From Eubacteriales bacterium (GTDB taxonomy: Bacteria; Bacillota; Clostridia; Oscillospirales; CAG-382), in the NCBI GenBank assembly GCA_050953105.1, contig JBMNMA010000007.1, positions 130,461-194,460 of the forward strand: a stretch of 64,000 bases of DNA, in the 5' to 3' direction. A model generated the notes under the pieces. That model was not told the DNA's origin. It worked only from the letters and a program-made list of their open reading frames with translations, and did not search any database. Shown piece by piece: positions 9,497 to 59,703 of the stretch; the first letter of the stretch is position 1; every line of letters starts with the position of its first letter. The position numbers and the translations under genes are program-made.

Positions 9497-9874
9497 ATGA
9501 TGAAAGACTTTAAGGATTTTTTGGATACCATCAGCGATCCCATAAAAAGGGAGAGGATGGAAGGCATAATAAACTTTATCCGTAAATCCTTCCCAAAGCT
9601 TAACGAGGAAATAAAATGGAATCAGCCCATGTTCTCCCACCACGGAACATTTATCATAGCCTTTTCCATAGCCAAGCCCCATATAGCCGTAGCCCCCGAA
9701 GGGGTAGCCATAAACCGCTTTAAGGACGACATAGAAAAGGCAGGGTATTCCCATACGTCCGGAATGTTTCGCATCAAGTGGTCTGATAAGGTGGACTTTG
9801 ACCTGCTTTATAATATGATAGCCTTTAACATTGAGGACAAAAAGGACATGACAAAGTTCTGGCGTGAAGGTTGA
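9497..9874 (+). CDS. DUF1801 (YdhG-like) domain protein
   Basis: The motif EEIKWNQPMFSHHGTFIIAFSIAKPHIAV is typical of DUF1801/iron-chaperone-like proteins. Confidence 0.6.
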   Translation: MMKDFKDFLDTISDPIKRERMEGIINFIRKSFPKLNEEIKWNQPMFSHHGTFIIAFSIAKPHIAVAPEGVAINRFKDDIEKAGYSHTSGMFRIKWSDKVDFDLLYNMIAFNIEDKKDMTKFWREG

Positions 9875-9960
9875 AAATAAAGCTCGCCGTATGCGATTGA
9901 TGTTGTTATGCTTAACCGCCGGCAGGGGGCGGTTAATTACGCCGGAATTGTATGAAAAAC

Positions 9961-33735: not shown

Positions 33736-35094
33736 ATGGACAAAAGCACTGTTGCCGCCATATCCACCCCCAAGGGAAAGGGCGGGGTGGCAATGATAAG
33801 AATAACCGGGGAACAAGCCTTTGAGATAGCCTCAAAGGTATTTGTGCCTGCGTCAAATAAGGAACTTTTGTCCTATAAACCCAACACCGCCATATACGGC
33901 AGATTTTTCGACGAAAACATACCCTTTGACGACGGAATTGCCATTTTATATAAAGCTCCTGCCTCCTTTACCGGGGAGGATACGGTGGAGCTGTGCTGTC
34001 ACGGAGGTGTGCTGGTTACCCAAAAGCTGCTTTCAGCTGTCTTTGCCGCCGGAGCATACCCTGCCGGAGCAGGGGAGTTTACCAAGCGGGCCTTTATAAA
34101 CGGCAAGCTTAAATTATCAGAGGCTGAGGCTATCGGCGGAATTATAGACGCAGTTTCGGAAAAGCATTTGAATATTTCACTTCTTCAGCTTGAAGGTTCG
34201 TTGAGCCGTAAAATATCTGATATATATTCCCGGCTTGCCTTTCTTGCATCATCGGTGTATGCCTATATCGACTACCCCGACGAGGATATGACCGATATCC
34301 CGCCGGAGGAAATGAAAAAGATTTTAACAGGTATTTATTCGGAACTTGACACCCTCCGGCAAAGCCGCAAATACGGCAGGGCAATTTCCGAAGGGGTGTC
34401 CGCCGTTATTGCAGGACGTCCGAATACGGGTAAGTCCTCCCTTTTAAATCTTCTTTCGGGGAGCGAAAGGGCGATAGTGACTGATATCGAAGGCACCACC
34501 CGGGATGTTATTACCGAAAAAATCGTGGTTGGGGATGTGGTGCTTAACCTTTCCGACACCGCAGGAATAAGAGACGGTGGCGACATTATAGAAAAAATAG
34601 GCATTGAAAAGTCGCAAAAAGCAATAAACGATGCCGAAATTATAATTCTTGTTTTTGAAAACCGCCTTACACAGCAGGACATGCACGTTGTGGAGCTTAT
34701 TAAAAAAGCAAAAAAAGAAAACTCGGTCATTGCTTTATACAATAAAACCGACCTTGAAAAAGCCGAGCCTGCCGGCATTTTCAAATACGAAATCCCCTTT
34801 TCCACAAAAACCGGGGAAGGAAAGGCCGAGCTTGAAAAAGCCATTGCCACCCTCTGCGGCGAGGGGGATGTTACCGACAATTCCACCATCATAACCTCCG
34901 CCCGGCAGTTTGCCGCCATAAAAAAATCAATGGAGCATATTCAAAACGCCATTTTTTCTCTTGATTCCTTTACCCAGGACATTGCGGGAATGGATATCGA
35001 ACGGGCAATGGCACAATTAAGTGAGCTTGACGGCCGGCAGGTAACCGAAGAAGTGGTTAACAATATTTTTTCCCATTTCTGCGTGGGAAAGTAA
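33736..35094 (+). CDS. mnmE: tRNA modification GTPase MnmE
   Basis: G1 motif GRPNTGKSS, DTAG, NKTD, and the C-terminal FCVGK. Confidence 0.95.
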   Translation: MDKSTVAAISTPKGKGGVAMIRITGEQAFEIASKVFVPASNKELLSYKPNTAIYGRFFDENIPFDDGIAILYKAPASFTGEDTVELCCHGGVLVTQKLLSAVFAAGAYPAGAGEFTKRAFINGKLKLSEAEAIGGIIDAVSEKHLNISLLQLEGSLSRKISDIYSRLAFLASSVYAYIDYPDEDMTDIPPEEMKKILTGIYSELDTLRQSRKYGRAISEGVSAVIAGRPNTGKSSLLNLLSGSERAIVTDIEGTTRDVITEKIVVGDVVLNLSDTAGIRDGGDIIEKIGIEKSQKAINDAEIIILVFENRLTQQDMHVVELIKKAKKENSVIALYNKTDLEKAEPAGIFKYEIPFSTKTGEGKAELEKAIATLCGEGDVTDNSTIITSARQFAAIKKSMEHIQNAIFSLDSFTQDIAGMDIERAMAQLSELDGRQVTEEVVNNIFSHFCVGK

Positions 35095-38328: not shown

Positions 38329-38358
38329 ACGGGCGGAAAACTCCGCCCGTATTTGTTT
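38329..38358 (+). terminator. Terminator of the NUDIX gene
   Basis: Stem acgggcgga / tccgcccgt followed by atttgttt. Confidence 0.7.
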
Positions 38359-38765: not shown

Positions 38766-38795
38766 TTGACAAACCCCCATTGATGATGTTAAGAT
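38766..38795 (+). promoter_or_regulatory. Putative promoter upstream of the small TM ORF and pilus operon
   Basis: ttgaca (38766-38771), 18-nt spacer, taagat (38790-38795). Confidence 0.4.
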
Positions 38796-39142: not shown

Positions 39143-39820
39143 ATGAAAAATCTGCTTGCAATGAGCGCCCGCCGGGGCTTTACTTTAGTGGAGCTGGTGG
39201 TTACCATGGCGCTGGTGGTTACCATTTCGGCAACCGCCATCGGCATTGTGGTGATAACTTCCAAAACAGTAGGCACCGGTGAAAATCTTTATGCCCGCAT
39301 AACCGAACTTCGAAACACCAAAACCGCCGTTATACTTTGGGCAACCTCCTTTGATGATGCCGAAAACACCCTTGTGGTGGAAAACAACCGTCTTTCGGTC
39401 ATAAACAGCAAAGGGGAGGAAGTTGCCTTTTTAGCCATTGACGGCGGAAGGCTGTATCTGGCCAAAAATATATCCGCCGGGGACAGCTTGGATGGCGAAG
39501 ATGTGCAAAGCAACGAGATGGGTGAAACTAAATTTACCGTAATAAAATCCGCATCATTTGAACTCTTGAATAAAATTCAAAGTGATGAAGGCGGCGAAAA
39601 CAACGATAACAACGATAACAGCGAAATAGATGATGACGGTGAAAGCTTCGATGCCGGTGAAAATGATGAAATTCCAACCGACACAAACTCCAAACCTGAT
39701 GTATCCGGCAATCTGATAAAGTGCACCATCACCTACACCTATGAAAACGGGGAGGATATTTACACCTTTGTGTTTGTCCTCCGTGCGGCAGAATGTATTG
39801 CCGAAACATCCGACGGTTAA
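39143..39820 (+). CDS. Type IV pilin / pseudopilin (major pilin candidate)
   Basis: The class III signal is MKNLLAMSARRG|FTLVELVVTMALVV with Glu at +5. An acidic insert, GGENNDNNDNSEIDDDGESFDAGENDE, is present. Confidence 0.8.
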   Translation: MKNLLAMSARRGFTLVELVVTMALVVTISATAIGIVVITSKTVGTGENLYARITELRNTKTAVILWATSFDDAENTLVVENNRLSVINSKGEEVAFLAIDGGRLYLAKNISAGDSLDGEDVQSNEMGETKFTVIKSASFELLNKIQSDEGGENNDNNDNSEIDDDGESFDAGENDEIPTDTNSKPDVSGNLIKCTITYTYENGEDIYTFVFVLRAAECIAETSDG

Positions 39821-39871
39821 ATAAACAATATCACACAAGACTTTTGGCTTAAAATGTGATAGGAGAAATCC

Positions 39872-41479
39872 ATGGCTGAAAAAAACCCCAATCAATCACC
39901 CGAAAAGACCGGTCTTAACGCCAGTGACTTTTACACCGTGGACTACGGCCTTGAGGGAGATATAACCTTAACCGACATTACCCCCCTACCTCCCCTAGAC
40001 GATGAGGGAAAAGGCAAGGGCCAAAAAGGGGGAAAAAGGTCGAAAACCGGAAAAAAAGACAAATCTAAATCCAAGGAAGACGGTATAGATGCCGACATCT
40101 ACGGAGAAAACGACGGGGAGGGTTTTACACCCTCTGCCGATATTTCCGTTTCTTCCGGTGAGGAAGGGAAAAAGAAAAAATCCTTACTACCCTTCAAGTC
40201 AAAGGCGGCAAAGCGGCCGGTTCCCAAGATAAAGTGGCAAAAGGATTTGTCCTTTGCAGGAATACTTTTAAATAAGATCAAGGCATCCCACCCGGCAATA
40301 ATCGTTGGCGTGGACATGCATGCCAAAACAATAAATATCATGGACATTAAGGGGACAAACGGCAAAACCGCCCATGTAACAAGGGTGCCCTTTAAGGAAA
40401 ACCCCGAGGATGATAAGTTCTTTGACTTGCTTTCCGGGGCACTAATGGAGTTTGCCAAATCCAGGCCCCCCGAAAAGTCATTGAACTTTTATATAATACT
40501 CCCAGACAACTGCGCGGCGCTGGACATTATCACCATACCCGCCATAAGCAAAAAGCGGGTGCAGGAATCCTTGGAAATAAATATTTCCGAAACCTATAAG
40601 GATATAAACGCCCTGCGGATGTCCTGCTCCACCGTGGTGTCCTCCAACCGGATGGTTACCTATACCCTTACGTCAATACGCAAAAAGCTGCTTCAAAACT
40701 ACAAGCAGGCTCTTGAGCGTGTAAAAATGTCCCCCAAGGTATTCACCTTTTCGGCGGCGGCGACGCTAAACAGTGTGTTTGCCCTTCAGTCCCGCAACCG
40801 GGGCAGGTCCTTTGTGTTTATGGACGTAAAGAAGCACACCACCCGGTTTATAATCGCTGCCAAGGGAAAGCTGGTGGGATTTTACAACCACCCCATAGGC
40901 TATGACATTCTAAAGCCCGACCGGGTGGTAAACGAATACACCCTTTATAACCACGACATAGCTGAACTTGCGGTGTTAAACGCCGAGGAAAAGGCAAAGC
41001 GTAAAGAGTTAACCCTCCTTGATGCCGAGGCTGAGGAGGATAGCGAATCCTTCCTCAACCAGGTGTTGGGGGTAGGAACGGAAATTCCGGCCGATGCACC
41101 CACTCAGAACGAAGCAAAAAAAACACCCAAGGTGCTTCTTAAAAAGACCCCCAAGCGGCTGCCGAAATTTATGCTCCGTCCCGAACCCGAAACACCGGAG
41201 GGGATGATAGCCGAAAACTTCCGCATACTGCTTAAATGGGCCCTCCTTTTGGTGCGTTCCAACAAGGGGCTGGGAAAAGGCTGCGACCCGGAATATATCC
41301 TTGTCAACATTCCGCCCCAGTTTGCCTTTGTAATAGATGAGGTTAACAAAGAGAAAAAGGAAAACGGAATAGAATTTCGTAAATTTACCACCGACCATAT
41401 AAGCCCCAAGGTTTCGGCCAATTTGGAACTGTATGGCGCCGTATATACCGACACATACAATCTCCAGCACAACTTTTAA
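39872..41479 (+). CDS. PilM-like (actin-like ATPase fold) pilus assembly protein with a ~125-aa polybasic disordered N-terminal extension (tentative)
   Basis: After a Lys/Gly-rich region, the segment AIIVGVDMHAKTINIMDIKG resembles the phosphate-1 start of PilM/FtsA-like proteins. Position within the pil operon supports this. There is no TM helix. Confidence 0.45.
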   Translation: MAEKNPNQSPEKTGLNASDFYTVDYGLEGDITLTDITPLPPLDDEGKGKGQKGGKRSKTGKKDKSKSKEDGIDADIYGENDGEGFTPSADISVSSGEEGKKKKSLLPFKSKAAKRPVPKIKWQKDLSFAGILLNKIKASHPAIIVGVDMHAKTINIMDIKGTNGKTAHVTRVPFKENPEDDKFFDLLSGALMEFAKSRPPEKSLNFYIILPDNCAALDIITIPAISKKRVQESLEINISETYKDINALRMSCSTVVSSNRMVTYTLTSIRKKLLQNYKQALERVKMSPKVFTFSAAATLNSVFALQSRNRGRSFVFMDVKKHTTRFIIAAKGKLVGFYNHPIGYDILKPDRVVNEYTLYNHDIAELAVLNAEEKAKRKELTLLDAEAEEDSESFLNQVLGVGTEIPADAPTQNEAKKTPKVLLKKTPKRLPKFMLRPEPETPEGMIAENFRILLKWALLLVRSNKGLGKGCDPEYILVNIPPQFAFVIDEVNKEKKENGIEFRKFTTDHISPKVSANLELYGAVYTDTYNLQHNF

Positions 41480-41489
41480 GGAGGATGAC

Positions 41490-41924
41490 ATGAAAAAGCA
41501 TTCCTCAAAAAAAGGCGTTTCGGTGGTGGAAGCGGTTATCGCCATGGCACTGATTTCGATTGTGGCGTCGGCCTCCTTTACCGCAATAACCGCCTCAATA
41601 AGGACAAATGCCAGAGCAGTGATGCGTTTTAAGTCTATAAGTATTGTGGGCGACTGCCTTGAATGCTTTAAATATTCCGACACGCCGGAGGAATTTGAAA
41701 AATCCCTTGAATTTGCCGGAATGGTAAAGGATGTTGATTATAGCTTCTTGAATTTTCCCGTAGGTTCTAATGCCTATTTATATATTTTCAACCAAGGGGA
41801 ATATCAGGTGGTTGTAACTATCAACTGGGAAAGCGGCGAGTTTAACGCCTCTGCCACCACATCGCAAGAAGAAGTGTTCTACACCTTCGGTGACGGTTCG
41901 GACGGTTATATAAAGGGGGGTTAA
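41490..41924 (+). CDS. Minor pilin / pseudopilin
   Basis: MKKHSSKKG|VSVVEAVIAMALISIV with Glu at +5. RBS is GGAGG. Start is at 41490, not 41433. Confidence 0.7.
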   Translation: MKKHSSKKGVSVVEAVIAMALISIVASASFTAITASIRTNARAVMRFKSISIVGDCLECFKYSDTPEEFEKSLEFAGMVKDVDYSFLNFPVGSNAYLYIFNQGEYQVVVTINWESGEFNASATTSQEEVFYTFGDGSDGYIKGG

Positions 41925-41927
41925 GTT

Positions 41928-42293
41928 ATGCGAAGGCTGTTAAAAATCTCTCAAAAGGCCAGACGTGGAATGGCCATTGAAACCGCTATCTACACCATGG
42001 TGGTGGTATTTATAATGATATCCACCATTATGTATGTGGCGGTCAATATGGTTAAGGACGATATAACCAACAACGACGCTTTTATTGAAAAATATGCCGC
42101 CATCGACCAGATAGGGGAGGAATTTGTTGCCAATGTCTTTGGCGACGGAGAATTTGACGAAAACGCCTATACGGGGTATCTGGTTACGGTAACCGATAAT
42201 AACCTTGAGGTTGTGGTTGTGGAATCTTCCACCGGGAAGACGGTTCTTGTGGTAAAAATCGATAACGGAAAAGTCGTCAAATGGACGCATTAA
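41928..42293 (+). CDS. Minor pilin-like protein (atypical signal)
   Basis: MRRLLKISQKARRG|MAIETAIYTMVVVFIMI has a hydrophobic helix after Gly, but Glu is at +4 rather than +5. Confidence 0.5.
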   Translation: MRRLLKISQKARRGMAIETAIYTMVVVFIMISTIMYVAVNMVKDDITNNDAFIEKYAAIDQIGEEFVANVFGDGEFDENAYTGYLVTVTDNNLEVVVVESSTGKTVLVVKIDNGKVVKWTH

Positions 42294-42303
42294 GGAAGAT
42301 TAA

Positions 42304-43089
42304 ATGATTACTGTTGTATATATTTTAACCGCCGTTCTGGCCCTCTGCATAGGAAGCTTTTTGAATGTGGTAATATACCGGGTGCCGGAGGGAAAGTCGG
42401 TTGCCTTCCCCCCTTCCCATTGCCCCAAATGCCAAAACCAGATTAAGTGGTATGACAATATTCCCGTATTGTCTTATATATTCCTGCGTGGAAAATGTAG
42501 AAACTGCGGGAAAAAAATATCATTACAGTATCCCGCCGTGGAGCTTGCAAACACACTGCTTTGGATACTTTGCGTTTATATGTTTTGGGAAAAGTCGCCT
42601 GTCTATGCCTTGATATGCATGGCCATCTGCTCGGTATTTATCTGTATTTTTGTTATAGACATTCACTGTCATTTGATTTTTTACCGCTTTCAGATATCGC
42701 TTTTTGTTTTAACAGCGGCATCTGTTTTAACAAAGCAGGGCCCGTCGTTAACCGACCGTCTTATAGGCTTTGGTGCCGGGGCGGTGGTGTTAACCCTTAT
42801 TTATCTCACCTTCCTTGTGATTATAAAACGGGAGGGATTAGGCATAGGCGACATTATATTAATTGCCACAAGCGGACTGTTAACAGGCTGGCAGGGGCTT
42901 ATTCTGGTTATGCTTATATCCTCTGTTTCCGCTTGCTTTGTGCTTTTGGCTGTGCGAATAGCCAGTAAAAAGCACGACCGCTTTGCCGAATACCCCTTTG
43001 CCCCCTTTATTGTGTTTGCCGATCTTATGACATTGTTTTTCGGCGGGCAGATTATTGAATCTTATCTGCGTTTAGTGATCGGAGGTTAA
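42304..43089 (+). CDS. pilD: Prepilin peptidase (A24 family)
   Basis: The N-terminal segment is IGSFLNVVIYR with the CPKC...CRNC zinc pairs. The motif GLGIGDIIL contains a catalytic Asp. The protein is polytopic. Confidence 0.9.
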   Translation: MITVVYILTAVLALCIGSFLNVVIYRVPEGKSVAFPPSHCPKCQNQIKWYDNIPVLSYIFLRGKCRNCGKKISLQYPAVELANTLLWILCVYMFWEKSPVYALICMAICSVFICIFVIDIHCHLIFYRFQISLFVLTAASVLTKQGPSLTDRLIGFGAGAVVLTLIYLTFLVIIKREGLGIGDIILIATSGLLTGWQGLILVMLISSVSACFVLLAVRIASKKHDRFAEYPFAPFIVFADLMTLFFGGQIIESYLRLVIGG

Positions 43090-43093
43090 CCTA

Positions 43094-44302
43094 TTGCCCA
43101 AGTATAAATACGTTGCGGTCAATATAAATAAAGTAAAATTCACCGGCACTTTCATTGCCGAAAATGAAAAGGACCTGGCTGTCCAGCTTGCAAAGCAGAA
43201 TTTATATCTGGTGTCATGTACCCAGGTCAAAAGAGCTTCGCCCAGCAACTTCTTTTCGGTTACCGGTAAAGTAAAACTGAATGAAATAACCACCTTCTGC
43301 CGCCAGTTTTCAATAATGATAAACGCTGGTATATCGGTGGTAAATTCCATCGGGATTTTAAAAAACCAAAAATATACGTCTTATTTTAAAAGCATTCTCG
43401 ACGTGGTTTATGACGATATAAAAGGCGGCTTGTCCTTGTCGGAAGCCATGAAAAAGCATGACAAGGTGTTCCCCAACTTTTTCAGATCAATGGTTTATGT
43501 GGGTGAAATAAGCGGTCAGCTTGACAGGGTGCTGCTTTCCCTTGCAGACTATTACGAAAAAGACAGGGAAATAAAGAAAAAAGCAAAATCGGCATTGATT
43601 TACCCTGGAATACTTTTATCCCTTACGGTTGTCATAGTCGTTATAATGCTCGTTTACGTAATTCCCACCTTCCGCTCTGCTCTTGAGAATATGGAAGTGG
43701 AAATGCCGGCGATAACCGCGACAATTTATGCCATGTCCGACTGGCTTCTTGCCAACTGGAAGTATTTGCTTCTCGGAGCATTCCTGTTTGTGTTTCTTAT
43801 AATGGCGTTTAAGAAAACCAAAAAGGGAACATACTTTTTCGACACTATTAAGCTGAAAATCCCGATATATAGAAAGGTTCAGATAAACCTTATTACATCC
43901 CGGTTTGCCCGGGGTTATGCATTGCTTTTATCAAGCGGTATGGACGTGGTGGAAGCAATGGAAACCATGTCGCTGGTGTTGGGCAATACCAATGTAGAAA
44001 AGCGGTTTAAAAAAGCGGTGGAGGAAGTCCGGCTGGGCAACACCATAACCGGATCCCTTGGGGCATACGATATGTTCCCGGACATACTGCTGCAAATGGT
44101 GGCGGTAGGGGAAAAAACCGGTACGCTCAGCGAGGTTTTAACCAGGGCCTGTACCTACTTTGACGACCAGGTGGATTCCTCCCTTTCTGCGCTTACGGCC
44201 ATGCTCCAGCCCATACTGATTACAATTTTGGGCGGTTCGGTGGGAACCCTCTTTTACGCCATATATGCGCCGATGATATCAATAATGCAAACCTATCTAT
44301 AA
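43094..44302 (+). CDS. pilC: Type IV pilus platform protein (GspF/PilC family)
   Basis: It has two T2SSF repeats (FCRQFSIMINAGISV; FARGYALLLSSGMDV) and three TM segments. Start codon is TTG. Confidence 0.9.
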   Translation: MPKYKYVAVNINKVKFTGTFIAENEKDLAVQLAKQNLYLVSCTQVKRASPSNFFSVTGKVKLNEITTFCRQFSIMINAGISVVNSIGILKNQKYTSYFKSILDVVYDDIKGGLSLSEAMKKHDKVFPNFFRSMVYVGEISGQLDRVLLSLADYYEKDREIKKKAKSALIYPGILLSLTVVIVVIMLVYVIPTFRSALENMEVEMPAITATIYAMSDWLLANWKYLLLGAFLFVFLIMAFKKTKKGTYFFDTIKLKIPIYRKVQINLITSRFARGYALLLSSGMDVVEAMETMSLVLGNTNVEKRFKKAVEEVRLGNTITGSLGAYDMFPDILLQMVAVGEKTGTLSEVLTRACTYFDDQVDSSLSALTAMLQPILITILGGSVGTLFYAIYAPMISIMQTYL

Positions 44303-44341: not shown

Positions 44342-46030
44342 ATGAATATAAATTTCGATATATTTCAGTATTTTGTCTATAAAAAGCTTTTAAAACGCAA
44401 AGACGCCGACGAGATGCTGGTGGAATGCACCCGTTTGGGGCTTACGCCGGAGGAATATCTCAAAAAGAAGGAGCTGGTTACCGAGCTTGAGGAGGTAACC
44501 ACCCTTGCGGAATATTACAACCTTCCCACCGTTCAGGTGGACATGCTTGACATAGACAAATCCCTGCTTTCTAATTTTACCTACGAATTTATGCGTAAGC
44601 ATAAGTTTTTGCCCGTTTCAATAGACAAAAACGGTGTTTTGCTGGTGGCCATAGGCAAGCCCTTATCCTGCTCCGCCCTTTCCATGATATCCACCTTCTA
44701 TTCGGGGTTTATGGATTTTATTTACGTTCCCCCCACCCAGATAGACGTGTATATCGACTCGATTGTGGCGGTTATCCAGACGGCCAAGGCACTTCATGCC
44801 ATCAGCCAGCCGGATACTAACAAACCGCAAGAGAAGGTAACATCCACCGTAGACGGCCTTCAGGATGAGGACGATGTATTAAGCAATCCCGCCGTCCGGC
44901 TGGTTGACTCGATTATTAAAGAGGCCATACCCTCCCGGGCCAGCGATATTCATGTAGAACCATTTGCCTCGGTGGTTAAGGTCAGATACCGTATTGACGG
45001 CTCGTTACGTGACCGGGCGGAATTTCCCATAGAGGCCTATGGGGCAATTTGTGCCAGAATGAAAATTTTATCAAACATGAATATAGCCGAGCGGCGTATA
45101 CCCCAGGACGGGCGTATCCACCAGACAATAAACGGCAAGGAATACGACTTCCGTGTGTCCTCCCTCCCCACCATTTACGGTGAAAAGTTTGTTATACGAA
45201 TTTTGGACAAATCCTCCTTCTATTTCACCCGTCAGGATTTGGGATTTACTCCGGAGGAAAATATCCTTATTGATAAAGCCCTTGCCCGGCCTAACGGCAT
45301 AATATTACTGACCGGACCCACCGGCTGCGGCAAATCCACCACCCTTTACTCCTTCTTAAAGGAAATAAATAAAGCTGACGTTAACATTATTACGGTAGAA
45401 GACCCGGTGGAATATACCATGCCGGGGATAAACCAGGTTCAGGTCAACACAAAAGCAAACCTCACCTTCGCCTCGTCACTAAGGTCTATACTCCGTCAGG
45501 ACCCCGACGTTATTATGATAGGTGAGATTCGTGACGAAGAAACCGCCCAGATAGCCGTCAGAGCGGCCATAACCGGCCACCTTGTTTTCTCCACACTCCA
45601 TACCAACGATGCACCGGGTGCCATAACCCGTCTTATTGACATGGGTACGGTAAGTTACCTCCTTGCCGATGCGCTGGTGTGCGTTATCGCCCAACGACTT
45701 GTTAAAAAGCTCTGCCCCGCCTGTAAAAAGAAGGGAAAAACCAATGCTCAGGAAATGGAGATATTAAAGCTTGACGAACCCGCAACCATCTGCCGCCCCG
45801 TAGGCTGCCAGTTTTGCGGTAATTCAGGCTATCGGGGAAGGCTTGGGGTGCACGAGATAATGTATATAAACGAAACACTCAGGGACGCCATTGTAGGTGG
45901 CATTAGCATTGAGGATTTAAGAAAGCTTGCAAAGGAACACGGCCTTGTTCCCCTTTGGGATTCCTGCCGTAACTTTGTTCTCCAGGGACTTACCTCCATT
46001 GACGAGCTTAAAACACTAAACATAGAATAA
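44342..46030 (+). CDS. pilB: Type IV pilus assembly ATPase (GspE/PilB family)
   Basis: Walker A GPTGCGKSTT, Asp box, Walker B VIMIGEIRD, His box TGHLVFSTLHTN, and the tetracysteine motif CPAC...CQFC. An N-terminal T2SSE_N-like domain is present. Confidence 0.95.
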   Translation: MNINFDIFQYFVYKKLLKRKDADEMLVECTRLGLTPEEYLKKKELVTELEEVTTLAEYYNLPTVQVDMLDIDKSLLSNFTYEFMRKHKFLPVSIDKNGVLLVAIGKPLSCSALSMISTFYSGFMDFIYVPPTQIDVYIDSIVAVIQTAKALHAISQPDTNKPQEKVTSTVDGLQDEDDVLSNPAVRLVDSIIKEAIPSRASDIHVEPFASVVKVRYRIDGSLRDRAEFPIEAYGAICARMKILSNMNIAERRIPQDGRIHQTINGKEYDFRVSSLPTIYGEKFVIRILDKSSFYFTRQDLGFTPEENILIDKALARPNGIILLTGPTGCGKSTTLYSFLKEINKADVNIITVEDPVEYTMPGINQVQVNTKANLTFASSLRSILRQDPDVIMIGEIRDEETAQIAVRAAITGHLVFSTLHTNDAPGAITRLIDMGTVSYLLADALVCVIAQRLVKKLCPACKKKGKTNAQEMEILKLDEPATICRPVGCQFCGNSGYRGRLGVHEIMYINETLRDAIVGGISIEDLRKLAKEHGLVPLWDSCRNFVLQGLTSIDELKTLNIE

Positions 46031-46045: not shown

Positions 46046-47593
46046 ATGAAGTTTAACGACTGCGTTCATTTTCTATATGACGGCGGCGAGCTTGAAAGAA
46101 TAGCCTCACCCTATGTCGCCCTTGCCGGAGGTGGGATTTTTTCCCTAAAGAAAGCCCCCTCCTGCGACAGGCTTATTGCAAGTATCGCCAAGGCGCAGGA
46201 TAAATACTTAGACAAAGAAAACATTAACAATGCCCTTAAATCGCTGTCGGAAAACAGCGACAAGGACATTGCTTTTGTATTTCCCGTCATTTTACGGGAA
46301 ATACTGCTTGAAAAAAACGACTGCTGCTACGAAACAAACTCGGTAAGCCTTGAGGTGCTGGAATACGAACGGGAAATTATAAAAAAAGCCAACAAGCTGG
46401 TTTTGAAAAACCTTTCCCCCGATATTTTAGCCTACCGGCAGATGCTTAAAATAACAAGAGAGGAAAATTTATCCGGCAAAGAGGTTAATACCCTTATTTG
46501 CCACATGAAGGAATATTACGGCGTGAATGACGAGGACGACCGGGTTATAAGAGCAAACCTCGGTATTTACCCCACTACCGAAAAATTCCAAACCCACACA
46601 AAGGCTCAGATTGAAAAGGCAAGGCAGGCACTTCAGAAAGCGGGGCTTGTGTTTTCGATAAGAAAAAGCGACGGGGTGATTTATGATATTATCCCGGAGG
46701 AAATTGCCGCAGGCATTAAAAAATATTTCGGCATGGAGGTAAAGGCCTCTGCTTATGAAAAAATAATAAAATACATGCTTGCAGAGTATAAAAAGCAGTA
46801 TTTTATCGATACTTTGACCGCCTTCGGCATAGAAGTTCCCCAAAAGCCCAATTCGGCAAACCTATCATTGCTTGCAAAGACAAAGCTTAAACCCAGCGAC
46901 CTTATGGGGGGCAACAAGCAGTTCGAAGGCCTTTCCCGCAAGGCCCTTACCGACTGGTGCGAGGAGCTGGGATTAAACCGCACCGGCTCAAAGCAGGCGC
47001 TTATAGAAAAGCTGCTTGACTATTACGACCGTTCGGTGGAGGGTGAATACAAAAGCGACTACCGGGTGAGGTTTTATAATCATTACGAATCGATTGCCTC
47101 CCTTAACGCCGAAATATTCCAAACAGGTGAGCTTTCGGGCATATCCATAGGTGCTGACGGCATTTTTTCCGAAACCACCAATTATATATTTGAAATTCTG
47201 TTATCGTTAAAACCCGACCGCCTTTTGTCAAAGGCAAACATTACGGGTAAGATAACAAGCGGTGATAAGGCATATCTGTATGCCGCCGTTGCGTCGGAAT
47301 CTCCTGTTAACCTTGCCGAGCATATATCTAGTCTTTCAGCTGTTGTGGATGGTGAAGGAAGGGAAAGGGTGGCGGCAGTTATCGTGGTGGCAGATGACTT
47401 TACCGACGATTCGGTTAAGGAATGCGTTATGTATTACGCCAAAACCGACGTTCAGATATGCTTGATAAAAGCATCAGAATTAAAGGAATTAGCCGATAAA
47501 TGGACAGCAAAAGGGGAGCAAACCCCTTTTCCCATAAAATATCTCAGGCAAAACGGAAGGTTCGACAGAAAGGGATGCGAATTTATAGGCTGA
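46046..47593 (+). CDS. Uncharacterised cytoplasmic protein with a SAP DNA-binding motif and a restriction-endonuclease-like C-terminal region
   Basis: RBS GGGGAAGG lies 15 nt after the pilB stop. The SAP-like helix-extended-helix is LSRKALTDWCEELGLNRTGSKQALIEKLLDYY (aa 296-327). The C-terminal AAVIVVADDFTDDSVKE...ICLIKASELKELA has the layout of Mrr/FokI-type nuclease folds. No signal peptide or TM helix. Confidence 0.7.
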   Translation: MKFNDCVHFLYDGGELERIASPYVALAGGGIFSLKKAPSCDRLIASIAKAQDKYLDKENINNALKSLSENSDKDIAFVFPVILREILLEKNDCCYETNSVSLEVLEYEREIIKKANKLVLKNLSPDILAYRQMLKITREENLSGKEVNTLICHMKEYYGVNDEDDRVIRANLGIYPTTEKFQTHTKAQIEKARQALQKAGLVFSIRKSDGVIYDIIPEEIAAGIKKYFGMEVKASAYEKIIKYMLAEYKKQYFIDTLTAFGIEVPQKPNSANLSLLAKTKLKPSDLMGGNKQFEGLSRKALTDWCEELGLNRTGSKQALIEKLLDYYDRSVEGEYKSDYRVRFYNHYESIASLNAEIFQTGELSGISIGADGIFSETTNYIFEILLSLKPDRLLSKANITGKITSGDKAYLYAAVASESPVNLAEHISSLSAVVDGEGRERVAAVIVVADDFTDDSVKECVMYYAKTDVQICLIKASELKELADKWTAKGEQTPFPIKYLRQNGRFDRKGCEFIG

Positions 47594-47651: not shown

Positions 47652-50540
47652 ATGGCTAAAAGACATTTGTATTCACGGGTCCCGGCAAAGGCAAGCATGT
47701 ATCAGTTAACCGACGGTTATGATACCTTCGCCCGTTCCGGCGGCCTTGACAAAGATTTTATATTTTCAGAAATGGGAAGGCTTTTCGAGTATTCCCCAGG
47801 CAAAGCCGAAAGCGGCATGATACTCGACGGTGTTCTTCCTCCTACCTATGCCAGCCTTCGCACTCCGGGAGGAGATATTGTGCACTCCTGTATAACCTAC
47901 CTCCCCAGGGATTTCACCGGCGAACGTTATGCCGTTATGATAAATTCCCTTGTCCTTGACAAGGATGAAAAGCAGGAAGTATACACAAAAAAAGAGGCAG
48001 CCTATTTCAACCCCGGATTGTTTGACGAAAAAATATCCGACTTTAAAATAACCTCCGCCGATTATGCCCCCATAACCGACTACCCCGAAACCAGATACGA
48101 AACAGCTCCATTAAAAGATATTTCCCAAATAGTCGGTGAATATGACGAAAGGGTAATAAAGCGGTTGCTGTTTGCTCTTATATATGTAACGTCATATAAA
48201 AACAAATACGTGTTTATCGCCCCCGTAATGCCGGCGGAAGAGCTTTCCCAATGGGGACTTGAGCTTATTAACGCTCTTATGCAGCTTTTCCCCGCCTTTG
48301 TCAGGGAGCGGCTGTCCTATATAACCTTTATAACCGAATACAAAAAGATGAACTGCTTTAACGTCAAGTTTGTCCACTCGGACGATATTCAAACCGCCGG
48401 CAAGGGATTTATCTTCGACATGACACCAAGCAAGGCGGACAACATAAAGGACAGCGAATACAAGGAATGCGAAAGCGAAATCAACTTTTTGTATGAGCTT
48501 TGCGAAAACAAGACAAAGAGGGACGCATGGACATCATTTTGCGATAATATTTCATTAAATGATGATAATTACGAAAAGCCCTCACTTAATGCTTTCTGCG
48601 ATCTGGTGCTGCTGTTCAAGCAGGCCCGCTACGAGGGAGAGCCGGAGGAAAATGACCTTGTAGCCAACGATAACGCCTGTTTTAAGCTTATTTCCACCTA
48701 CCAAAGCCACAGAAACGTCCTTGAATTAAAGGACAGACTTAATATTCTGGCACCGCTTATTTCAAGATACTGCCGCACCCGGGCTGCCATACCCGCAAAT
48801 ATTTTTAGTAGAATAACCAAGCTTTATCCTAAAGAACCTGAGGAATGCCGGGTTGTTATAATGGACGGCTTGCTTGAGCTTATCCATACCGACGCCATGC
48901 GGGAAAAGCTGTTTTCCTTTATTAAAAGCGTCTTTGACGGCGAAAACGCCGAAAGACGGGAAATTATATGCGAAAATCTGTCAAGGGTTTTTTACGGCGG
49001 CTTTCTGCAGGAGCAGATTTTAACATTATTCGACACCGCCTTTGAAAAAGAAACCTACCAAAGCAAAACCAACATTATATCAAAGCTCCTACTTTCCATA
49101 CGCACAGAGGGAATACGGGATAAGGTGTTTGAATTTTTAAAAGCCCACCGGGACCACATGACCGAGGACCACCGGAATTTGGTTTATTCCGCTTTGGTTG
49201 ACGCAATTCCGTTTAAGGACAAGACCGCGTCAATGGCCGTTGAGGTTATCGACCATTACACCCAAATCGAGTCACCGGCCGCCCAGAACGAGATAGTGTA
49301 TGAGCTTTACGCTATGCTTGAGGAGGACGACTCTGTTGCAGGTGTCCTTGTTACCGACAGCGATATTTCCCGCAAAGGCCCCGTTTCACTGGGAATAATT
49401 AAAAAAATCGTCAGAAAAAACGCTAAGAAAAAGCTTTTCACTCTAATGCTTTCCCGCCTTGCGGGGCAAAAGCTTTACGGAATTGCCAACGCCGTGGAAG
49501 GGGTGTGGCTGTTTGACGAAACCGACAGCGAGGGAATTAACAAGGCATTGTCCGACAAGCTTAGAATATTGTTTGAGGAAGCAGGGCAAAACACAACCCT
49601 TGAGGATATGATAACGCTTCATAAACGCCTTACGGAATCCCCCCTAAACAAGGGCGATTTCAGACAGGGGGTGTATAAAAAGCTATGTCTGTCCTTCCTT
49701 TATCCGCTGATGGGAGAAAGGTATATAAAAGCCCTTGACCCAAGGCAGTATGCCAAACCCATATCCTATTATGCCGGCTTTGCTTTGACCACAGAGGGAA
49801 TATCCTCCTTTGCCGGTGTTAAGACGGTTATTCAGTTTGCCGACCTTGTAAAGGCCATAAACGACCTAAAACCGGTGGATGCACTGGATATAGTGTTTAA
49901 GCTTGAAATACCGCCTGAGCTTGTTCAGCCTGCCTTATACCGGCTTAAAGCGGAATGCAAGGGAGTGTTTGAGCTTTCGGCAAATTCAAACTCTGCTCAG
50001 GTGGTTGATGTCTGCTCGTCGGGCTGTTATGCCGTTGCTACTGCGGCTGCGGAATATATCGAGCATAAGCGGATAAATATGCCACGGCTGTTTGACGAAA
50101 ACCTGAAGGTTTTGGAAAAACGCCTTCAGGACGACTTGAATAAAGCCGAAGATCCCCCTAAAAACTTCAAAAAAGCGTCACTTGAGGCCCACGACACGGC
50201 TTTGGTAAAATCCCTTGAGGGTTTGACACGGTTTTGCGCCAATGTGTGCAAAACCCGGTTAGATGAAATGGCAAAGCAGAAGCTGTGCTACGCCCATATA
50301 AGCGACCTTGACTATATTCTGGTGGATTTGTTTAACAGCCATTTCAAGTCACTTAAAAAGGAAGTGATGGGGTTAAGCCATCACCTGCGGGCGACAGATG
50401 CCATTATCGCCGAAAAGGTAAAGAATAATTACGGTAAAAAGTCACTTCCCGAACGGGATGATACCGCAACTCCCACTTCATCAGCCACAACTGCATCACA
50501 AAAATCCAAGGGATTTAGTCTATTTAAAAGAAATAAATAA
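47652..50540 (+). CDS. Uncharacterised 962-aa cytoplasmic, largely alpha-helical protein
   Basis: The ORF is long, clean and in the same orientation, and ends just before the operon terminator. The N-terminus is HLYSRVPAKASMYQLTDGYDTFARSGGLDKDFI. No TM helix or signal peptide. The tail is basic and Ser/Thr-rich. The RBS is weak, so the start is uncertain (alternative Met16 at 47697). Confidence 0.7.
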   Translation: MAKRHLYSRVPAKASMYQLTDGYDTFARSGGLDKDFIFSEMGRLFEYSPGKAESGMILDGVLPPTYASLRTPGGDIVHSCITYLPRDFTGERYAVMINSLVLDKDEKQEVYTKKEAAYFNPGLFDEKISDFKITSADYAPITDYPETRYETAPLKDISQIVGEYDERVIKRLLFALIYVTSYKNKYVFIAPVMPAEELSQWGLELINALMQLFPAFVRERLSYITFITEYKKMNCFNVKFVHSDDIQTAGKGFIFDMTPSKADNIKDSEYKECESEINFLYELCENKTKRDAWTSFCDNISLNDDNYEKPSLNAFCDLVLLFKQARYEGEPEENDLVANDNACFKLISTYQSHRNVLELKDRLNILAPLISRYCRTRAAIPANIFSRITKLYPKEPEECRVVIMDGLLELIHTDAMREKLFSFIKSVFDGENAERREIICENLSRVFYGGFLQEQILTLFDTAFEKETYQSKTNIISKLLLSIRTEGIRDKVFEFLKAHRDHMTEDHRNLVYSALVDAIPFKDKTASMAVEVIDHYTQIESPAAQNEIVYELYAMLEEDDSVAGVLVTDSDISRKGPVSLGIIKKIVRKNAKKKLFTLMLSRLAGQKLYGIANAVEGVWLFDETDSEGINKALSDKLRILFEEAGQNTTLEDMITLHKRLTESPLNKGDFRQGVYKKLCLSFLYPLMGERYIKALDPRQYAKPISYYAGFALTTEGISSFAGVKTVIQFADLVKAINDLKPVDALDIVFKLEIPPELVQPALYRLKAECKGVFELSANSNSAQVVDVCSSGCYAVATAAAEYIEHKRINMPRLFDENLKVLEKRLQDDLNKAEDPPKNFKKASLEAHDTALVKSLEGLTRFCANVCKTRLDEMAKQKLCYAHISDLDYILVDLFNSHFKSLKKEVMGLSHHLRATDAIIAEKVKNNYGKKSLPERDDTATPTSSATTASQKSKGFSLFKRNK

Positions 50541-50589: not shown

Positions 50590-50620
50590 AAAAAAACAAC
50601 CAACCCGGTGGGGTTGGTTG
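50590..50620 (-). terminator. Terminator of the minus-strand coaD-side gene string
   Basis: A 10-bp stem, caaccaaccc / gggttggttg, with a T7 run in minus orientation. Confidence 0.75.
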
Positions 50621-50626
50621 TATGAT

Positions 50627-52379: not shown

Positions 52380-53693
52380 TTAAATTTCAGCTTTTACCAA
52401 ACTAAAATAACCGTTGCTGCCAAACAGCAGGCTTGATTTTTCGTAAAATTCCCTGTCGCAGACAAAGCAGCCATTGGTGACGCCCTTATATTCCATGCCA
52501 CGGGGAAGAAGTTTTGTCTGCTCGTCCCAGGTAAGGTAGTTTTCATCCCCGTTTACCTCCACGCAGCCGGTGGTCATTGTGGAAAGGGGAGAAATGCGGC
52601 TGGCAAACTGCTTGTTCCATTCGGCAAGATAGGGGTTGACCGTCAGGTCGGCGCAAAGGCAATCGCCCCCTGCCGCCTTCATGGCAGATGCCATTTTAAA
52701 GGACACCGACAAGGTTTTTGCTATGGGTTTCAACGCCACCGCCCTAAAGCCCTGCTTTATGCGGTGTTGCAAATCCTCCACCGAATGGGCTGATTCGTCG
52801 GCATTTATGGTAACGGGGAAGTCGCCTACAAAAATGTCCCGGTTTTCTAATGTTTCCTCGTCAAAGGGTTCTTCGATTAGCGCCACCCGGTCAAGGATTT
52901 TATTTTTATCCATAAAATCCACAAGCTCATAAAGCAAATCCTTGGTGTCATATCTGCCGTTGGCATCAAGATAGTAGGCGATTTTTCCGTTTTTGGTAAG
53001 GTCGGTTTGATATTCTTCAGAAATTTTGTGTATCTGCATTATGCGGTTTTTATCCCATTCAACCATAGACCGCATATCGGCGTTATGGGATGATTTATCG
53101 ACACTGTTGCCTATTTTAATTTTCAAAATTCCTGTTTTACCGTCAAGAATGCGTTTTATTTCATTTTCGCTGACATTATAGCTTATAAGGGGAATGCGGG
53201 CCAGCTTTTCATGCCGGCAGCTTAAGGCGTCCTTGGCAAATTGAGGGATAATGCCGTCAAAGTCATTTATTCCGTTTTCTTTGGCATAAAGCGACCACAG
53301 GGCAATATCAATCCCCACCAGGGAATTTAATAAAAAGGTTGTCTTAACCTTTCTTTTGCATATAAAATCGGCATATTCCCTAAGGGGGGGAAGTATTTCG
53401 TCAAGGAGAATATCCGGCGTATAAAAGGATTTGCCCTTAATTAGTTCAAGGGCAAAGCTTGTGGTTTGATACATTAGGGTGTTTGATTCGTCGGAGGAAT
53501 GTTCGGCAAAAACGTCGCCGTCCGACCACAACACGCTTTGTGTTGCGGGGCAGACGGCGGTATGATTTCCGGTTTTTATTACGCACACCGACTGCCACAG
53601 TTGGTCAATATGCTGCCCCTTGAAGCCGAAGGGTTTTTTAAGCTTTTCTTTTATAAGAAAAAGGGAAGTGTCCTCAATGGTTACCAGTTTCAT
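52380..53693 (-). CDS. Enolase-superfamily enzyme, MLE-subgroup-like (racemase/epimerase/dehydratase type)
   Basis: KxK motif in GILKIKIG, metal ligands in LDANG, IEEP and ADES, and a second catalytic Lys in ALKPIAK. The start overlaps the coaD end by 20 nt and has a GGAGA RBS. Confidence 0.72.
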   Translation of the reverse strand: MKLVTIEDTSLFLIKEKLKKPFGFKGQHIDQLWQSVCVIKTGNHTAVCPATQSVLWSDGDVFAEHSSDESNTLMYQTTSFALELIKGKSFYTPDILLDEILPPLREYADFICKRKVKTTFLLNSLVGIDIALWSLYAKENGINDFDGIIPQFAKDALSCRHEKLARIPLISYNVSENEIKRILDGKTGILKIKIGNSVDKSSHNADMRSMVEWDKNRIMQIHKISEEYQTDLTKNGKIAYYLDANGRYDTKDLLYELVDFMDKNKILDRVALIEEPFDEETLENRDIFVGDFPVTINADESAHSVEDLQHRIKQGFRAVALKPIAKTLSVSFKMASAMKAAGGDCLCADLTVNPYLAEWNKQFASRISPLSTMTTGCVEVNGDENYLTWDEQTKLLPRGMEYKGVTNGCFVCDREFYEKSSLLFGSNGYFSLVKAEI

Positions 53694-57939: not shown

Positions 57940-59703
57940 TTATGTGTAGTCGTCATAGGAAACATGGGCGGGTATGGCGTTGCCGGTGGCGGAAACCAGT
58001 CCACAAAGTATCCAGAACATAAGCAGTCCGTTGCTTGTTTCAAAGGTGTTTGCAGACATACCGGTAACCAAAAAGACGCTCAGTCCGGTTATAAGTATGG
58101 CGCAAATAGGCCTGAGACGGCCTTTTCTTGAATACAAAGCCGAGGTAAAGGAACGGGAAAGCAGGAAAACTAAAAACACTCCCAATAAAGCCAGTCCTAA
58201 AATACCTATGCTTTGGGCAAGGACGCCGTAAACCGAACTTCCACCGAAATTTCCTCCGCCAAACAGCAGCCGCACCATATCATATTCACCGTCGATTGCC
58301 TTTTTAACCTCAAAAGGTGTGACGGTGTTGAACACCAGCACAAACTGCCTTACATAATACAATATGGGGCAAACAAGGGCAAACACAAAGGCCACATTGA
58401 AAAATCTGGCGGTGCGGTAAACGAGATAGATAAAAAGACATATCACCGCCGAAAACCACACCATGTCCGACATTGACACCGCTGCGTTAAACAGCACAGA
58501 TAGCACAAATATAAGGCGTATAATAAAATGAAAACCGCTTTCCCTTTCGCCAAACATATAAAACGCAAAGGGAAGGGAGGCGATAATCATAAATTCTGAA
58601 TATAAATTAAATTCCCCCACCAAAATGCCGGTTACGGCGGTAAAGTTTATATTTACAAAGTTAAACATAAACAGGGTGGTTAAAACCACCGACTTTATCA
58701 TAAGCCCCAAGGCAAAGGAATATATGCTTTTTTTAAGCAGATTGGCGTTTCTCATTAAGTTTGACGCCATGAAATAGGACGAAACGATTATAAACAGCCG
58801 TATTGCGCTAAATCCGTTAAACGCATACATAAACACCAGAGCAAAGAAGAGGGCGGGATAATCCTCGCTTTTCAATGTCAGGTTGCGTTTTCCCCTAAAC
58901 AGCTTTAATATGTATGAAACCAGAGTTATAAACAGCACAAACAGCAGTTTGTCCTCGTTGCCAAAGGGAACCGCCGCCATTGATATAAGCAGTCCGCTTT
59001 CCGGCGAATATAAAATGATAAGCGCCGTCAGCACCACGGCAATGCGGTATATAACCTCCAGCGGCGACAGGAAAAACACCCCGATACCGAAGGCAAGGCC
59101 GGCAAAAAAGGCTGCGGCAAAATGGTTTTGGGGCTGGCGGTCGGTGTCTATGGCAAGGCGGTTTATGCCCAGCAGGTCAAGGAAGAAATAAAAAATGCCG
59201 CTGTCGATAAGCTTTTTCCCCAGGGATTTTTTTGAAAAAATCAAAAAGAAGGAGATAAGCACCATCAGCGCAATGGCAACCACCTCGGTTTGGGTGCGTT
59301 TTACGTCCATAAACACAAACAGCCGTATGGAATAGGCCAGCAGGGAATAAAGCCCTGCGGACATGAAAAACACTCCGAATGTTTTAACCGATGTCGCCAT
59401 AAAGGCCTTTATAAGCTGTCGGTAAAGCTTCACTATAAATGAATTTTCAACGCTTTTTGCAAATCCCCGCCGTATGGCCGAAAACACCGTTGTTGCCTTT
59501 GTCTTTTCGGCAATAAGGTGAATAAGGCCTTCATCCTTTGACTTGTCTGCGTAATCGACAAAGGTGAACACCTTTGACAAAGCCCGTTTTGAAAACAGCG
59601 AATGAAGCCTTGCCGAAAAATAGGTAAGGATTGAAACAATTATGCTGTTGTTTATAAACTGCCTGAAGACGCTTTTCTTGGCGGCTTTTAAGGATTTTTG
59701 CAT
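57940..59703 (-). CDS. Large polytopic membrane protein, O-antigen ligase/Wzy-like (tentative)
   Basis: At least 12 TM helices with a larger loop region. The family assignment is from general resemblance only. Confidence 0.5.
   Translation of the reverse strand: MQKSLKAAKKSVFRQFINNSIIVSILTYFSARLHSLFSKRALSKVFTFVDYADKSKDEGLIHLIAEKTKATTVFSAIRRGFAKSVENSFIVKLYRQLIKAFMATSVKTFGVFFMSAGLYSLLAYSIRLFVFMDVKRTQTEVVAIALMVLISFFLIFSKKSLGKKLIDSGIFYFFLDLLGINRLAIDTDRQPQNHFAAAFFAGLAFGIGVFFLSPLEVIYRIAVVLTALIILYSPESGLLISMAAVPFGNEDKLLFVLFITLVSYILKLFRGKRNLTLKSEDYPALFFALVFMYAFNGFSAIRLFIIVSSYFMASNLMRNANLLKKSIYSFALGLMIKSVVLTTLFMFNFVNINFTAVTGILVGEFNLYSEFMIIASLPFAFYMFGERESGFHFIIRLIFVLSVLFNAAVSMSDMVWFSAVICLFIYLVYRTARFFNVAFVFALVCPILYYVRQFVLVFNTVTPFEVKKAIDGEYDMVRLLFGGGNFGGSSVYGVLAQSIGILGLALLGVFLVFLLSRSFTSALYSRKGRLRPICAILITGLSVFLVTGMSANTFETSNGLLMFWILCGLVSATGNAIPAHVSYDDYT

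Follow-up and report, generated by a model that had tools for sequence, protein, structure and literature searches.

Why should a protein that resembles a component of GTPase-centric conflict systems be encoded at the end of a pilus gene cluster? The question is raised by a 64,000-nucleotide (nt) stretch of DNA (the window) from a Eubacteriales bacterium (Clostridia, Oscillospirales, CAG-382; assembly GCA_050953105.1, contig JBMNMA010000007.1, positions 130,461 to 194,460), in which the last gene of a type IV pilus cluster (47652..50540, plus strand) encodes a protein of 962 amino acids (aa). The open reading frame (ORF), Pfam matches, homologs, a profile alignment with hhalign and an AlphaFold model identify its product as a divergent member of the GAP1 family; GAP1 is the partner protein of DO-GTPases in these conflict systems (Kaur, Burroughs, Iyer and Aravind, 2020, eLife; PMC7159879). 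In most informative relatives, the gene adjoins a gene for a pilus motor ATPase of the PilB or PilT class, and no DO-GTPase gene was found nearby. We consider it probable, with moderate confidence, that the protein is an offshoot of GAP1 that has been rewired to a pilus operon, where it would act at the membrane periphery as an accessory or regulatory scaffold for the motor ATPases.

The homology to GAP1 is detected both with Pfam models and by comparison of profiles. The GAP1-N2 model (PF20013) matches residues 17-122 with 36.6 bits (E 5.4e-9; Pfam cutoff 24), and the GAP1-M model (PF20014) matches residues 163-256 with 24.0 bits (E 4.5e-5), that is, exactly at its cutoff of 24; no Pfam model for GAP1-C matched. 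Using hhalign, a profile built from 40 relatives was aligned with a profile built from 28 canonical GAP1 proteins (probability 99.8%, E 5.3e-30): residues 1-524 of the 962 correspond to canonical residues ~1-440, so the homology spans N2, M and the start of the helical region, and the remaining ~400 residues are unaligned. The family and canonical GAP1 also share the motifs Q..Y[ST]R, G[YF]DT.A.S.GL..FI and D[YF]TG.RS...H. A canonical GAP1 (P0106) scores 149.5 bits with N2 and 62 bits with M, compared with 28-49 and 20-32 bits, respectively, for the relatives of the window protein; with these lower scores, the 962-aa protein is therefore a genuine but divergent GAP1 homolog. Its size is similar to that of canonical GAP1 (800-1100 aa), and it shares the polar C-terminal extension that has been reported for GAP1 of firmicutes.

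A preliminary description of the window, made from the letters and translations alone, had proposed a GAP1-N2 domain from an N-terminal motif (its quoted peptide, HLYSRVPAKASMYQLTDGYDTFARSGGLDKDFI, begins at residue 5 of the 962-aa protein). The motif is indeed present in canonical GAP1, and the search of the Pfam GAP1 models that the description called for extended the assignment from N2 to M. The ORF itself, its neighbors (pilB and a SAP/nuclease-like gene) and the architecture were also described correctly: the sequence contains no P-loop (no Walker A motif and not even a bare GK[ST]), the model shows a helical-repeat body, and the basic, Ser/Thr-rich tail has 11 S/T and 9 K/R within the final 40 residues. 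The suspicion that translation starts at Met16 (47697) is not supported. Almost all homologs begin with MA(K/L/Y)QH(F/L)YSRVPA; the family alignment is invariant at M1 and P11 and at least 90% conserved at A2, Q4, H5, Y7, S8, R9 and V10. The first strand of the N2 domain is made up of residues 2-9 in the AlphaFold model. Because the N-terminal residues are conserved from M1 across the homologs, the alignment identifies the ATG at 47652 as the true start, despite its weak Shine-Dalgarno sequence.

Scans of the 962-aa protein against PADLOC, NCBIfam and PHROG gave zero matches, and none of the described pilus protein families (PilM/N/O, PilZ, FimX, SgmX) matched it in Pfam, NCBIfam or PHROG. A sequence-profile search of the PDB recovered only designed helical repeats, that is, no related solved structure.

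The relatives form a discrete, previously undescribed clade of gut and rumen Clostridia. We found 105 homologous clusters of the protein (880-990 aa); about 70 full-length representatives occur among 1.84 billion proteins, all from metagenome-assembled genomes (MAGs) of Clostridia. In an exhaustive scan of the 1.84 billion representatives with a hidden Markov model (HMM) of the N-terminal region, only 317 proteins matched at E ≤ 1e-3. When the new hits listed by that scan were re-scored with the full-length family HMM, members of the clade scored at least 629 bits, canonical GAP1 proteins at most 130 bits and two intermediates 217-265 bits; a neighbor-joining tree separates the family from canonical GAP1 as a monophyletic group. 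The intermediates (P0237 and P0239; ~955 aa) keep the N-terminal motif and a GF..LFGKK tail and lack the HTDxMRxKLF and FYGGF motifs. We retrieved 80 species-level loci, again exclusively from gut or rumen MAGs of Clostridia, of which 75 are informative for genomic context; the labels include Oscillospiraceae, Acutalibacteraceae, Faecousia and Ruminococcus-labelled bins, with the named records mainly from the first three. One locus (L028, 3361-13309) encodes a basal, longer member of the family (1121 aa) that is preceded by four ORFs on the same strand. One of these encodes a 581-aa protein in which a P-loop (GSHNSGKT) is combined with two CxxC pairs that resemble a Zn-ribbon, and another encodes an 866-aa protein that begins MENRYYQLLYGNTGNGYGT and has no Pfam match.

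The genome neighborhoods of these relatives connect the family to the pilus. In 66 of the 75 informative loci, a co-directional pilB gene immediately precedes the gene for the GAP1-like protein, at a median distance of 33 nt; the linked PilB proteins are 61-92% identical to PilB of the window, and their genes are preceded by genes for PilC, PilD and a conserved protein of 400-560 aa. Called genes with precomputed Pfam annotation independently gave the same pilB linkage. The co-directional linkage to pil genes is thus conserved across divergent genomes: it is kept, with very short intergenic gaps, at protein divergence down to about 23-30% identity.

In two of the 75 loci (L027 and L082), a PilB-like ATPase gene is located downstream instead; the same arrangement is found in L080, which was not scored for want of upstream sequence. 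These three loci make up a basal group in which a paralog of the GAP1-like gene is directly followed by a gene for an ATPase of 343-357 aa that is similar to PilB by tblastn (L027, 10001-13845; L080, 114-3950; L082, 10570-13880). The ATPases of L027 and L080 match T2SSE with ~166 bits and are of the size of PilT; in L027, a pilin gene additionally lies upstream and a gene for a Crp-family regulator downstream. Three MAGs contain both a PilB-linked and a PilT-linked copy, that is, UBA1389 (L007 and L080), JAQVQF (L170 and L027) and CAYOGQ (L171 and L082); in the window, neither PilT nor a second GAP1-like copy was found within the 64 kb. The element common to both arrangements is the adjoining gene for a PilB- or PilT-class ATPase.

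As a reciprocal control, a PilB search was used to collect 80 metagenomic outgroup loci with PilB proteins of 38-61% identity to PilB of the window, 48 of which have at least 3 kb of downstream sequence. None of the 48 has a GAP1-like gene downstream of pilB, as judged with three HMMs that recover all 80 family loci; the linkage is thus confined to a single clade, and pilus operons in general do not show it.

The partners expected of a conflict system were not found. Canonical GAP1 consists of three domains, N (of N1 or N2 type), M and C; its gene follows that of a DO-GTPase or is fused to it, and the two proteins co-evolve. Systems of the N2 type additionally contain a protein with FNIII repeats and lineage-specific theme genes, that is, tubulin/vWA, HSP70/GrpE or kinase/PP2C (PMC7159879). 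In the canonical loci of Oxobacter and Epulopiscium, the gene order is vWA, Tubulin_2, an unnamed gene, vWA, a second unnamed gene, DO-GTPase and GAP1, with the GAP1 gene overlapping the DO-GTPase gene. The gene of a third canonical GAP1 likewise overlaps the ORF upstream of it, which is partial and shares 64-87% identity with the Oxobacter and Epulopiscium DO-GTPases. Searching with two canonical DO-GTPases (tblastn) gave no match in the window or in 86 family loci, and homologs of the Oxobacter-derived tubulin, vWA and four unnamed flanking genes are likewise absent from the window and these 86 loci. FNIII, HSP70 and kinase genes do not occur in the few loci with Pfam annotation, although no direct search for them was made across all 80 loci; the Pfam-annotated neighbors comprise only pil and housekeeping genes. 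PADLOC gave no hits for defense models, and variable effector genes and a defense-island context were not observed, the exception being a SAP/FokI-like nuclease gene that is confined to the subclade of the window. The guanine-cytosine content is uniform across the locus. The operon is conserved and lies among housekeeping genes of the chromosome; it is not a defense island, and the clade has lost the DO-GTPase linkage that defines canonical GAP1.

These neighborhoods reshape the picture given by the preliminary description. Its call for a tabulation of the homologs' neighbors (GTPase versus pil genes) is answered by pilB in 66 of 75 loci and DO-GTPase in none of 86. The description had stated that no NTPase gene is nearby: this is correct for a dedicated GTPase or STAND NTPase, the DO-GTPase being absent from the window and the 86 loci, but the immediate neighbor, PilB (PilT for the paralog), is itself a P-loop NTPase, so that pilB, treated there as an irrelevant neighbor, is the neighboring gene that the clade conserves. 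The filing under NTP-dependent conflict systems that the description implied is not supported for the clade, given the missing partners, the absence of PADLOC hits and the housekeeping flanks. Near the pil cluster, MnmE (33736-35094) was the sole GTPase found; we considered and rejected it as the missing GTPase, as it is a housekeeping tRNA-modification GTPase in an mnmE-mnmG-rsmG operon that is separated from the pil cluster by a terminator.

The predicted structure suggests what the conserved part of the protein may do. The full-length AlphaFold model has a predicted local distance difference test score (pLDDT) of 87.3; the N-terminal 325 residues modeled alone have a pLDDT of 85 and a predicted template modeling score of 0.87. 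On the plus strand, the GAP1-N2 domain (aa 1-125; 47652..48026; PF20013 and model) is an alpha+beta, longin-like domain with the order b-b-a-b-b-b-a and the conserved residues Q4, Y7, R9, D24, T25, S29, D87, T89, G90, E91, R92 and H98. It is followed by the alpha/beta GAP1-M domain (aa 163-256; 48138..48419; PF20014, hhalign and model). With Foldseek, the best specific PDB match of the N-terminal module is TagF (9t0n; probability 0.97, E 2e-3, template modeling (TM) score 0.33, 258 columns); further matches are TagF (6iz8), folliculin (6nzd_H and 8dhb_J), FNIP2 (6ulg_N) and the Lst4 longin domain (4zy8). Weak as they are, these matches point to a single fold class.

TagF is a cytosolic checkpoint composed of an alpha+beta and an alpha/beta domain that regulates type VI secretion post-translationally (PDB 9t0n, 6iz8). 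Like the window protein, it has an alpha+beta domain followed by an alpha/beta domain, and both are encoded together with a secretion nanomachine, TagF as a cytosolic accessory; unlike it, TagF lacks a solenoid and is part of another machine, in diderm bacteria, and the match itself is weak (values above) and without sequence similarity. The folliculin-FNIP and Lst4 longin/DENN proteins share the b-b-a-b-b-b-a order of N2 and the alpha/beta domain that follows it, although their Foldseek probabilities are low (0.07-0.60) and no sequence relationship is detectable; the targets of longin/DENN modules are NTPases, in keeping with the ancestral association of GAP1 with a GTPase. A literature search for a documented link between TagF and DENN returned nothing usable.

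Functional analogies exist among the known regulators of PilB. In Myxococcus xanthus, PilB is controlled by the helical-repeat scaffold SgmX together with the GTPase MglA and its GTPase-activating protein (GAP) MglB, and in gamma-proteobacteria it is controlled by FimX-PilZ (PMC7519303). These are poorly conserved cytoplasmic accessory regulators of the extension ATPase, as is proposed for the protein described here, and SgmX is in addition a large helical-repeat (TPR) scaffold; the analogy is functional only, with no sequence or demonstrated structural homology and no small GTPase in the present locus. MglB is a GAP of the roadblock/longin type.

Downstream of the N2-M module, the secondary structure of the model (DSSP) shows an alpha-helical solenoid of 660 residues (aa 267-926; 48450..50429, plus strand), which aligns with the helical region of canonical GAP1 only to about aa 524 (hhalign). 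Full-length Foldseek searches retrieved only generic HEAT/ARM solenoids (E about 1e-3, TM <0.2) and are uninformative on function. The invariant alignment columns define a clade-specific patch within the solenoid (aa 405-485; 48864..49106, plus strand) that comprises L408, H412, D414, M416, R417, L420 and F421, then V446, Y448, G449 and G450, and finally L481 and R484, with the motifs LELIHTDxMREKLF (408-421) and RVFYGGFLQ (445-453). The patch is absent from canonical GAP1, where it falls on non-conserved columns, and from the intermediate sister proteins. Within the family, N2 and this patch are where most of the conservation is found.

The protein ends in a disordered, S/T-rich polar linker (aa 927-949) and a hydrophobic-basic C-terminus, SKGFSLFKRNK (aa 952-962; both within 50430..50537, plus strand); residues 936-962 have pLDDT <50 in the model. 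Most members of the family end in a hydrophobic-basic motif of the pattern GFFxKLFGKK (e.g., GFFAKLFGKK and GFFQRLFGKK); by a simple composition rule, such an end is present in 48 of 79 family members compared with 3 of 60 canonical GAP1 proteins. Some canonical GAP1 proteins instead end in transmembrane helices; the 962-aa protein contains no transmembrane segment, and the tail of its clade looks amphipathic. A membrane-proximal theme is shared with canonical GAP1. We take this tail to resemble a membrane-targeting sequence of the MinD type, and the conserved motif suggests that it may target the protein to the membrane.

We therefore return to the question of what a GAP1-like protein might do beside a pilus motor. 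Both in canonical systems and in this clade the gene adjoins an NTPase gene; what differs is the NTPase, which is the hexameric secretion ATPase PilB or PilT in the clade and the DO-GTPase in canonical systems. In the reading that we favor, the protein would be cytoplasmic and tethered to the membrane from the inside through its hydrophobic-basic C-terminal tail. The N2-M module (of TagF and longin/DENN type), which would ancestrally have engaged an NTPase, is proposed to dock on the adjacent hexameric pilus ATPase, and the solenoid patch at aa 405-485 may scaffold contacts with further components at the pilus base. In this way the protein would gate or position pilus extension, and the paralog would act likewise on retraction. 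Homology, the discreteness of the clade, gene linkage and domain architecture are established by the data above, and binding to PilB and PilT, a regulatory role and tethering to the membrane are predicted.

Several observations weigh against this reading. Seven of the 75 loci carry the GAP1-like gene without any pil gene, so the tight linkage is not obligatory; and one locus (L090) has the same operon architecture with a different, 308-aa gene after pilB and no GAP1-like gene. Gene order alone fits the ATPase, PilC, a PilM-like protein or the whole pilus as the partner. The helical-moment statistic of the tails is modest, with 14-32% above the 95th percentile of controls. The relatives are all MAG fragments, so a DO-GTPase could be encoded elsewhere in those genomes. 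Finally, the 581-aa protein upstream of the basal family member in L028 is weakly DO-GTPase-like (DO-GTPase2 17 bits, which is sub-threshold; blastp E 0.03); this single locus may be evolutionarily intermediate, or it may contain a divergent GTPase system next to the family member.

The seven loci and L090 are what one would expect if the synteny had no function, that is, if the gene were hitch-hiking at the 3' end of the pil operon through shared ancestry and its product had an unrelated scaffolding role in the cytoplasm: the protein stays intact where the linkage has been lost, the operon can exist without it, and it contains no known pilus-related domain. Against this, the short-gap linkage persists to such low protein identity, and the paralog independently adjoins the other pilus motor ATPase. 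Furthermore, the pil-less loci (e.g., L001, with the order greA-X-pepF) are mostly scattered in the tree; because most of them fall inside pilB-linked clades, their distribution suggests secondary relocation. We give functionless synteny little credence.

The last two of the points listed above bear on a different explanation, in which the protein still belongs to a GTPase-centric conflict system whose DO-GTPase and effectors are encoded elsewhere, so that the pilus neighborhood is incidental. The retention of the N2 and M domains with their conserved polar residues is compatible with this explanation, as are the Zn-ribbon P-loop protein of L028 and the fragmentary contigs. We nevertheless regard it as very unlikely: canonical GAP1 genes are tightly and often overlappingly linked to the GTPase gene, a linkage seen neither in the window nor in any of the 86 loci; the clade is set apart from canonical GAP1 by a large gap in scores and by its own invariant solenoid motifs; the pilB linkage has been conserved despite divergence and a PilT linkage has arisen as well; and there are neither variable effector genes nor a PADLOC match. 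The clade also differs from canonical GAP1 in its lower Pfam scores, the lack of tubulin or vWA partners by direct search, and its place in a conserved operon of a housekeeping region instead of a variable conflict locus.

The nuclease-like gene that separates pilB from the GAP1-like gene in the window suggests yet another function. This gene (46046..47593, plus strand) encodes a 515-aa protein that resembles SAP and FokI-cleavage-domain proteins: its own SAP match is sub-threshold (21.6 bits; cutoff 23.9), and its relatives match SAP with 28.5 bits and FokI_cleav_dom with 26.9 bits. It is rare (8 homologous clusters in 5.8 billion). The same order, pilB-SAP-GAP1, occurs in two truncated contigs, L170 (4867-6417; 62% identical) and L171 (7351-8892; 54% identical), and distant relatives (27-28% identity) adjoin NERD and McrB-N/NOV_C genes. 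A DNA-binding nuclease within a pilus operon could be linked to DNA uptake or defense. Two loci carry other genes at the same junction: L009 has a 676-aa lipoprotein-like gene (854-2884; signal peptide and Cys), and L031 encodes a 60-aa peptide with a single transmembrane segment (9709-9891). The junction was considered as a variable effector slot and rejected, since the other insertions are unrelated or non-coding.

Pili are receptors for phages and machines for DNA uptake; a pilus-coupled module for immunity or DNA processing can therefore be envisaged, in which the GAP1-like protein monitors the motor and triggers an effector, that is, the SAP/FokI-like nuclease in the subclade of the window. 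Such a module would suit the ancestry of the family in conflict systems, the conservation of the nuclease at one position in three loci (54-62% identity) and the company kept by its distant relatives. But the nuclease gene is absent from the closest relative of the window (L007, from UBA1389) and from all remaining loci, the insertions in L009 and L031 are unrelated to it, and most loci have no candidate effector at all, with downstream genes that are unrelated and often on the opposite strand. We judge an immunity module to be improbable, and we retain the pilus-motor accessory as the preferred reading.

Ten co-directional genes extend from a promoter-like site (TTGACA-18-TAAGAT with TG, found by consensus scan only; 38766..38795, plus strand), which lies before the first pilin gene, to the stop at 50540, and no strong plus-strand terminator was detected between 39143 and 50540. 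A bidirectional terminator that closes the upstream operon is located at 38329-38350; at the other end, directly after the stop of the GAP1-like gene, the cluster is bounded by the minus-strand hairpin terminator of a convergent 224-aa gene (50596..50621; 11-bp stem with a minus-strand T-run). All on the plus strand, the cluster comprises a pilin (39143-39820), a conserved 535-aa protein (39872-41479), two small pilin-like genes (41433-41924 and 41928-42293), the A24 prepilin peptidase pilD (42304..43089; A24_N_bact 128.8 bits, Peptidase_A24 41.8 bits), the platform protein pilC (43094..44302; T2SSF 193.5 bits) and the extension ATPase pilB (44342..46030; T2SSE 446 bits, MshEN 42 bits), followed by the nuclease-like and GAP1-like genes. 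In the pilin region (39143..42293), the N_methyl Pfam scores are 24.9 and 20.6 bits.

The N-terminus of the 535-aa protein is of low complexity and rich in K, G and E. Its gene stands where one for PilM/PilN would be expected, and the protein has no match in Pfam, PHROG or other families. It recurs at this place in the operon in almost all related loci (27-77% identity) and is a further unannotated component of the pilus operon. As listed, the first small pilin-like ORF (163 aa) begins within the 535-aa gene, with an overlap of 47 nt (41433-41479); because its N-methylation motif is located at residues 25-48, the start is probably an internal Met near MKKHSSKKG.

By Pfam, the flanks contain mnmE, mnmG and rsmG upstream and a 2-hydroxyacid dehydrogenase gene downstream; from the ORF translations, we take coaD, rsmD and uvrC to lie further downstream. 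Three minus-strand ORFs, 28445-29731 (428 aa), 52380-53693 (437 aa) and 57940-59703 (587 aa), have no Pfam match at E ≤ 1e-3 or 1e-4.

GAP1 has previously been described only as an obligate partner of DO-GTPases in conflict systems. A full-text literature search for GAP1-N2, PF20013 and PF20014 returned only Kaur et al. (2020), which describes GAP1 without mention of pili (PMC7159879); as far as can be told, the linkage between a GAP1-like gene and the pilus has not been described so far. A first consequence is one of annotation, that is, not every match to GAP1-N2 identifies a defense or conflict gene. A second is that the exchange of a GTPase for a pilus ATPase provides a handle on the uncharacterized N2-M module, the simplest idea being that the module engages NTPases.

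A more general proposal, which we offer tentatively and consider doubtful as it stands, is that N2-M is a general NTPase-docking regulator whose client has switched from DO-GTPase to PilB and PilT, with one paralog for each motor, and that the subclade with the nuclease could be a pilus-coupled unit for DNA processing or immunity. If this proposal is correct, Gram-positive gut Clostridia would have a dedicated pair of regulators for pilus extension and retraction, and the origin of a conflict-system core would be linked to a regulator of secretion machines. For the organisms themselves, abundant and mostly uncultured Clostridia of gut and rumen, the finding adds a component of the type IV pili that is large, conserved and unannotated; their pilus biology (adhesion, motility, DNA uptake) is poorly known.

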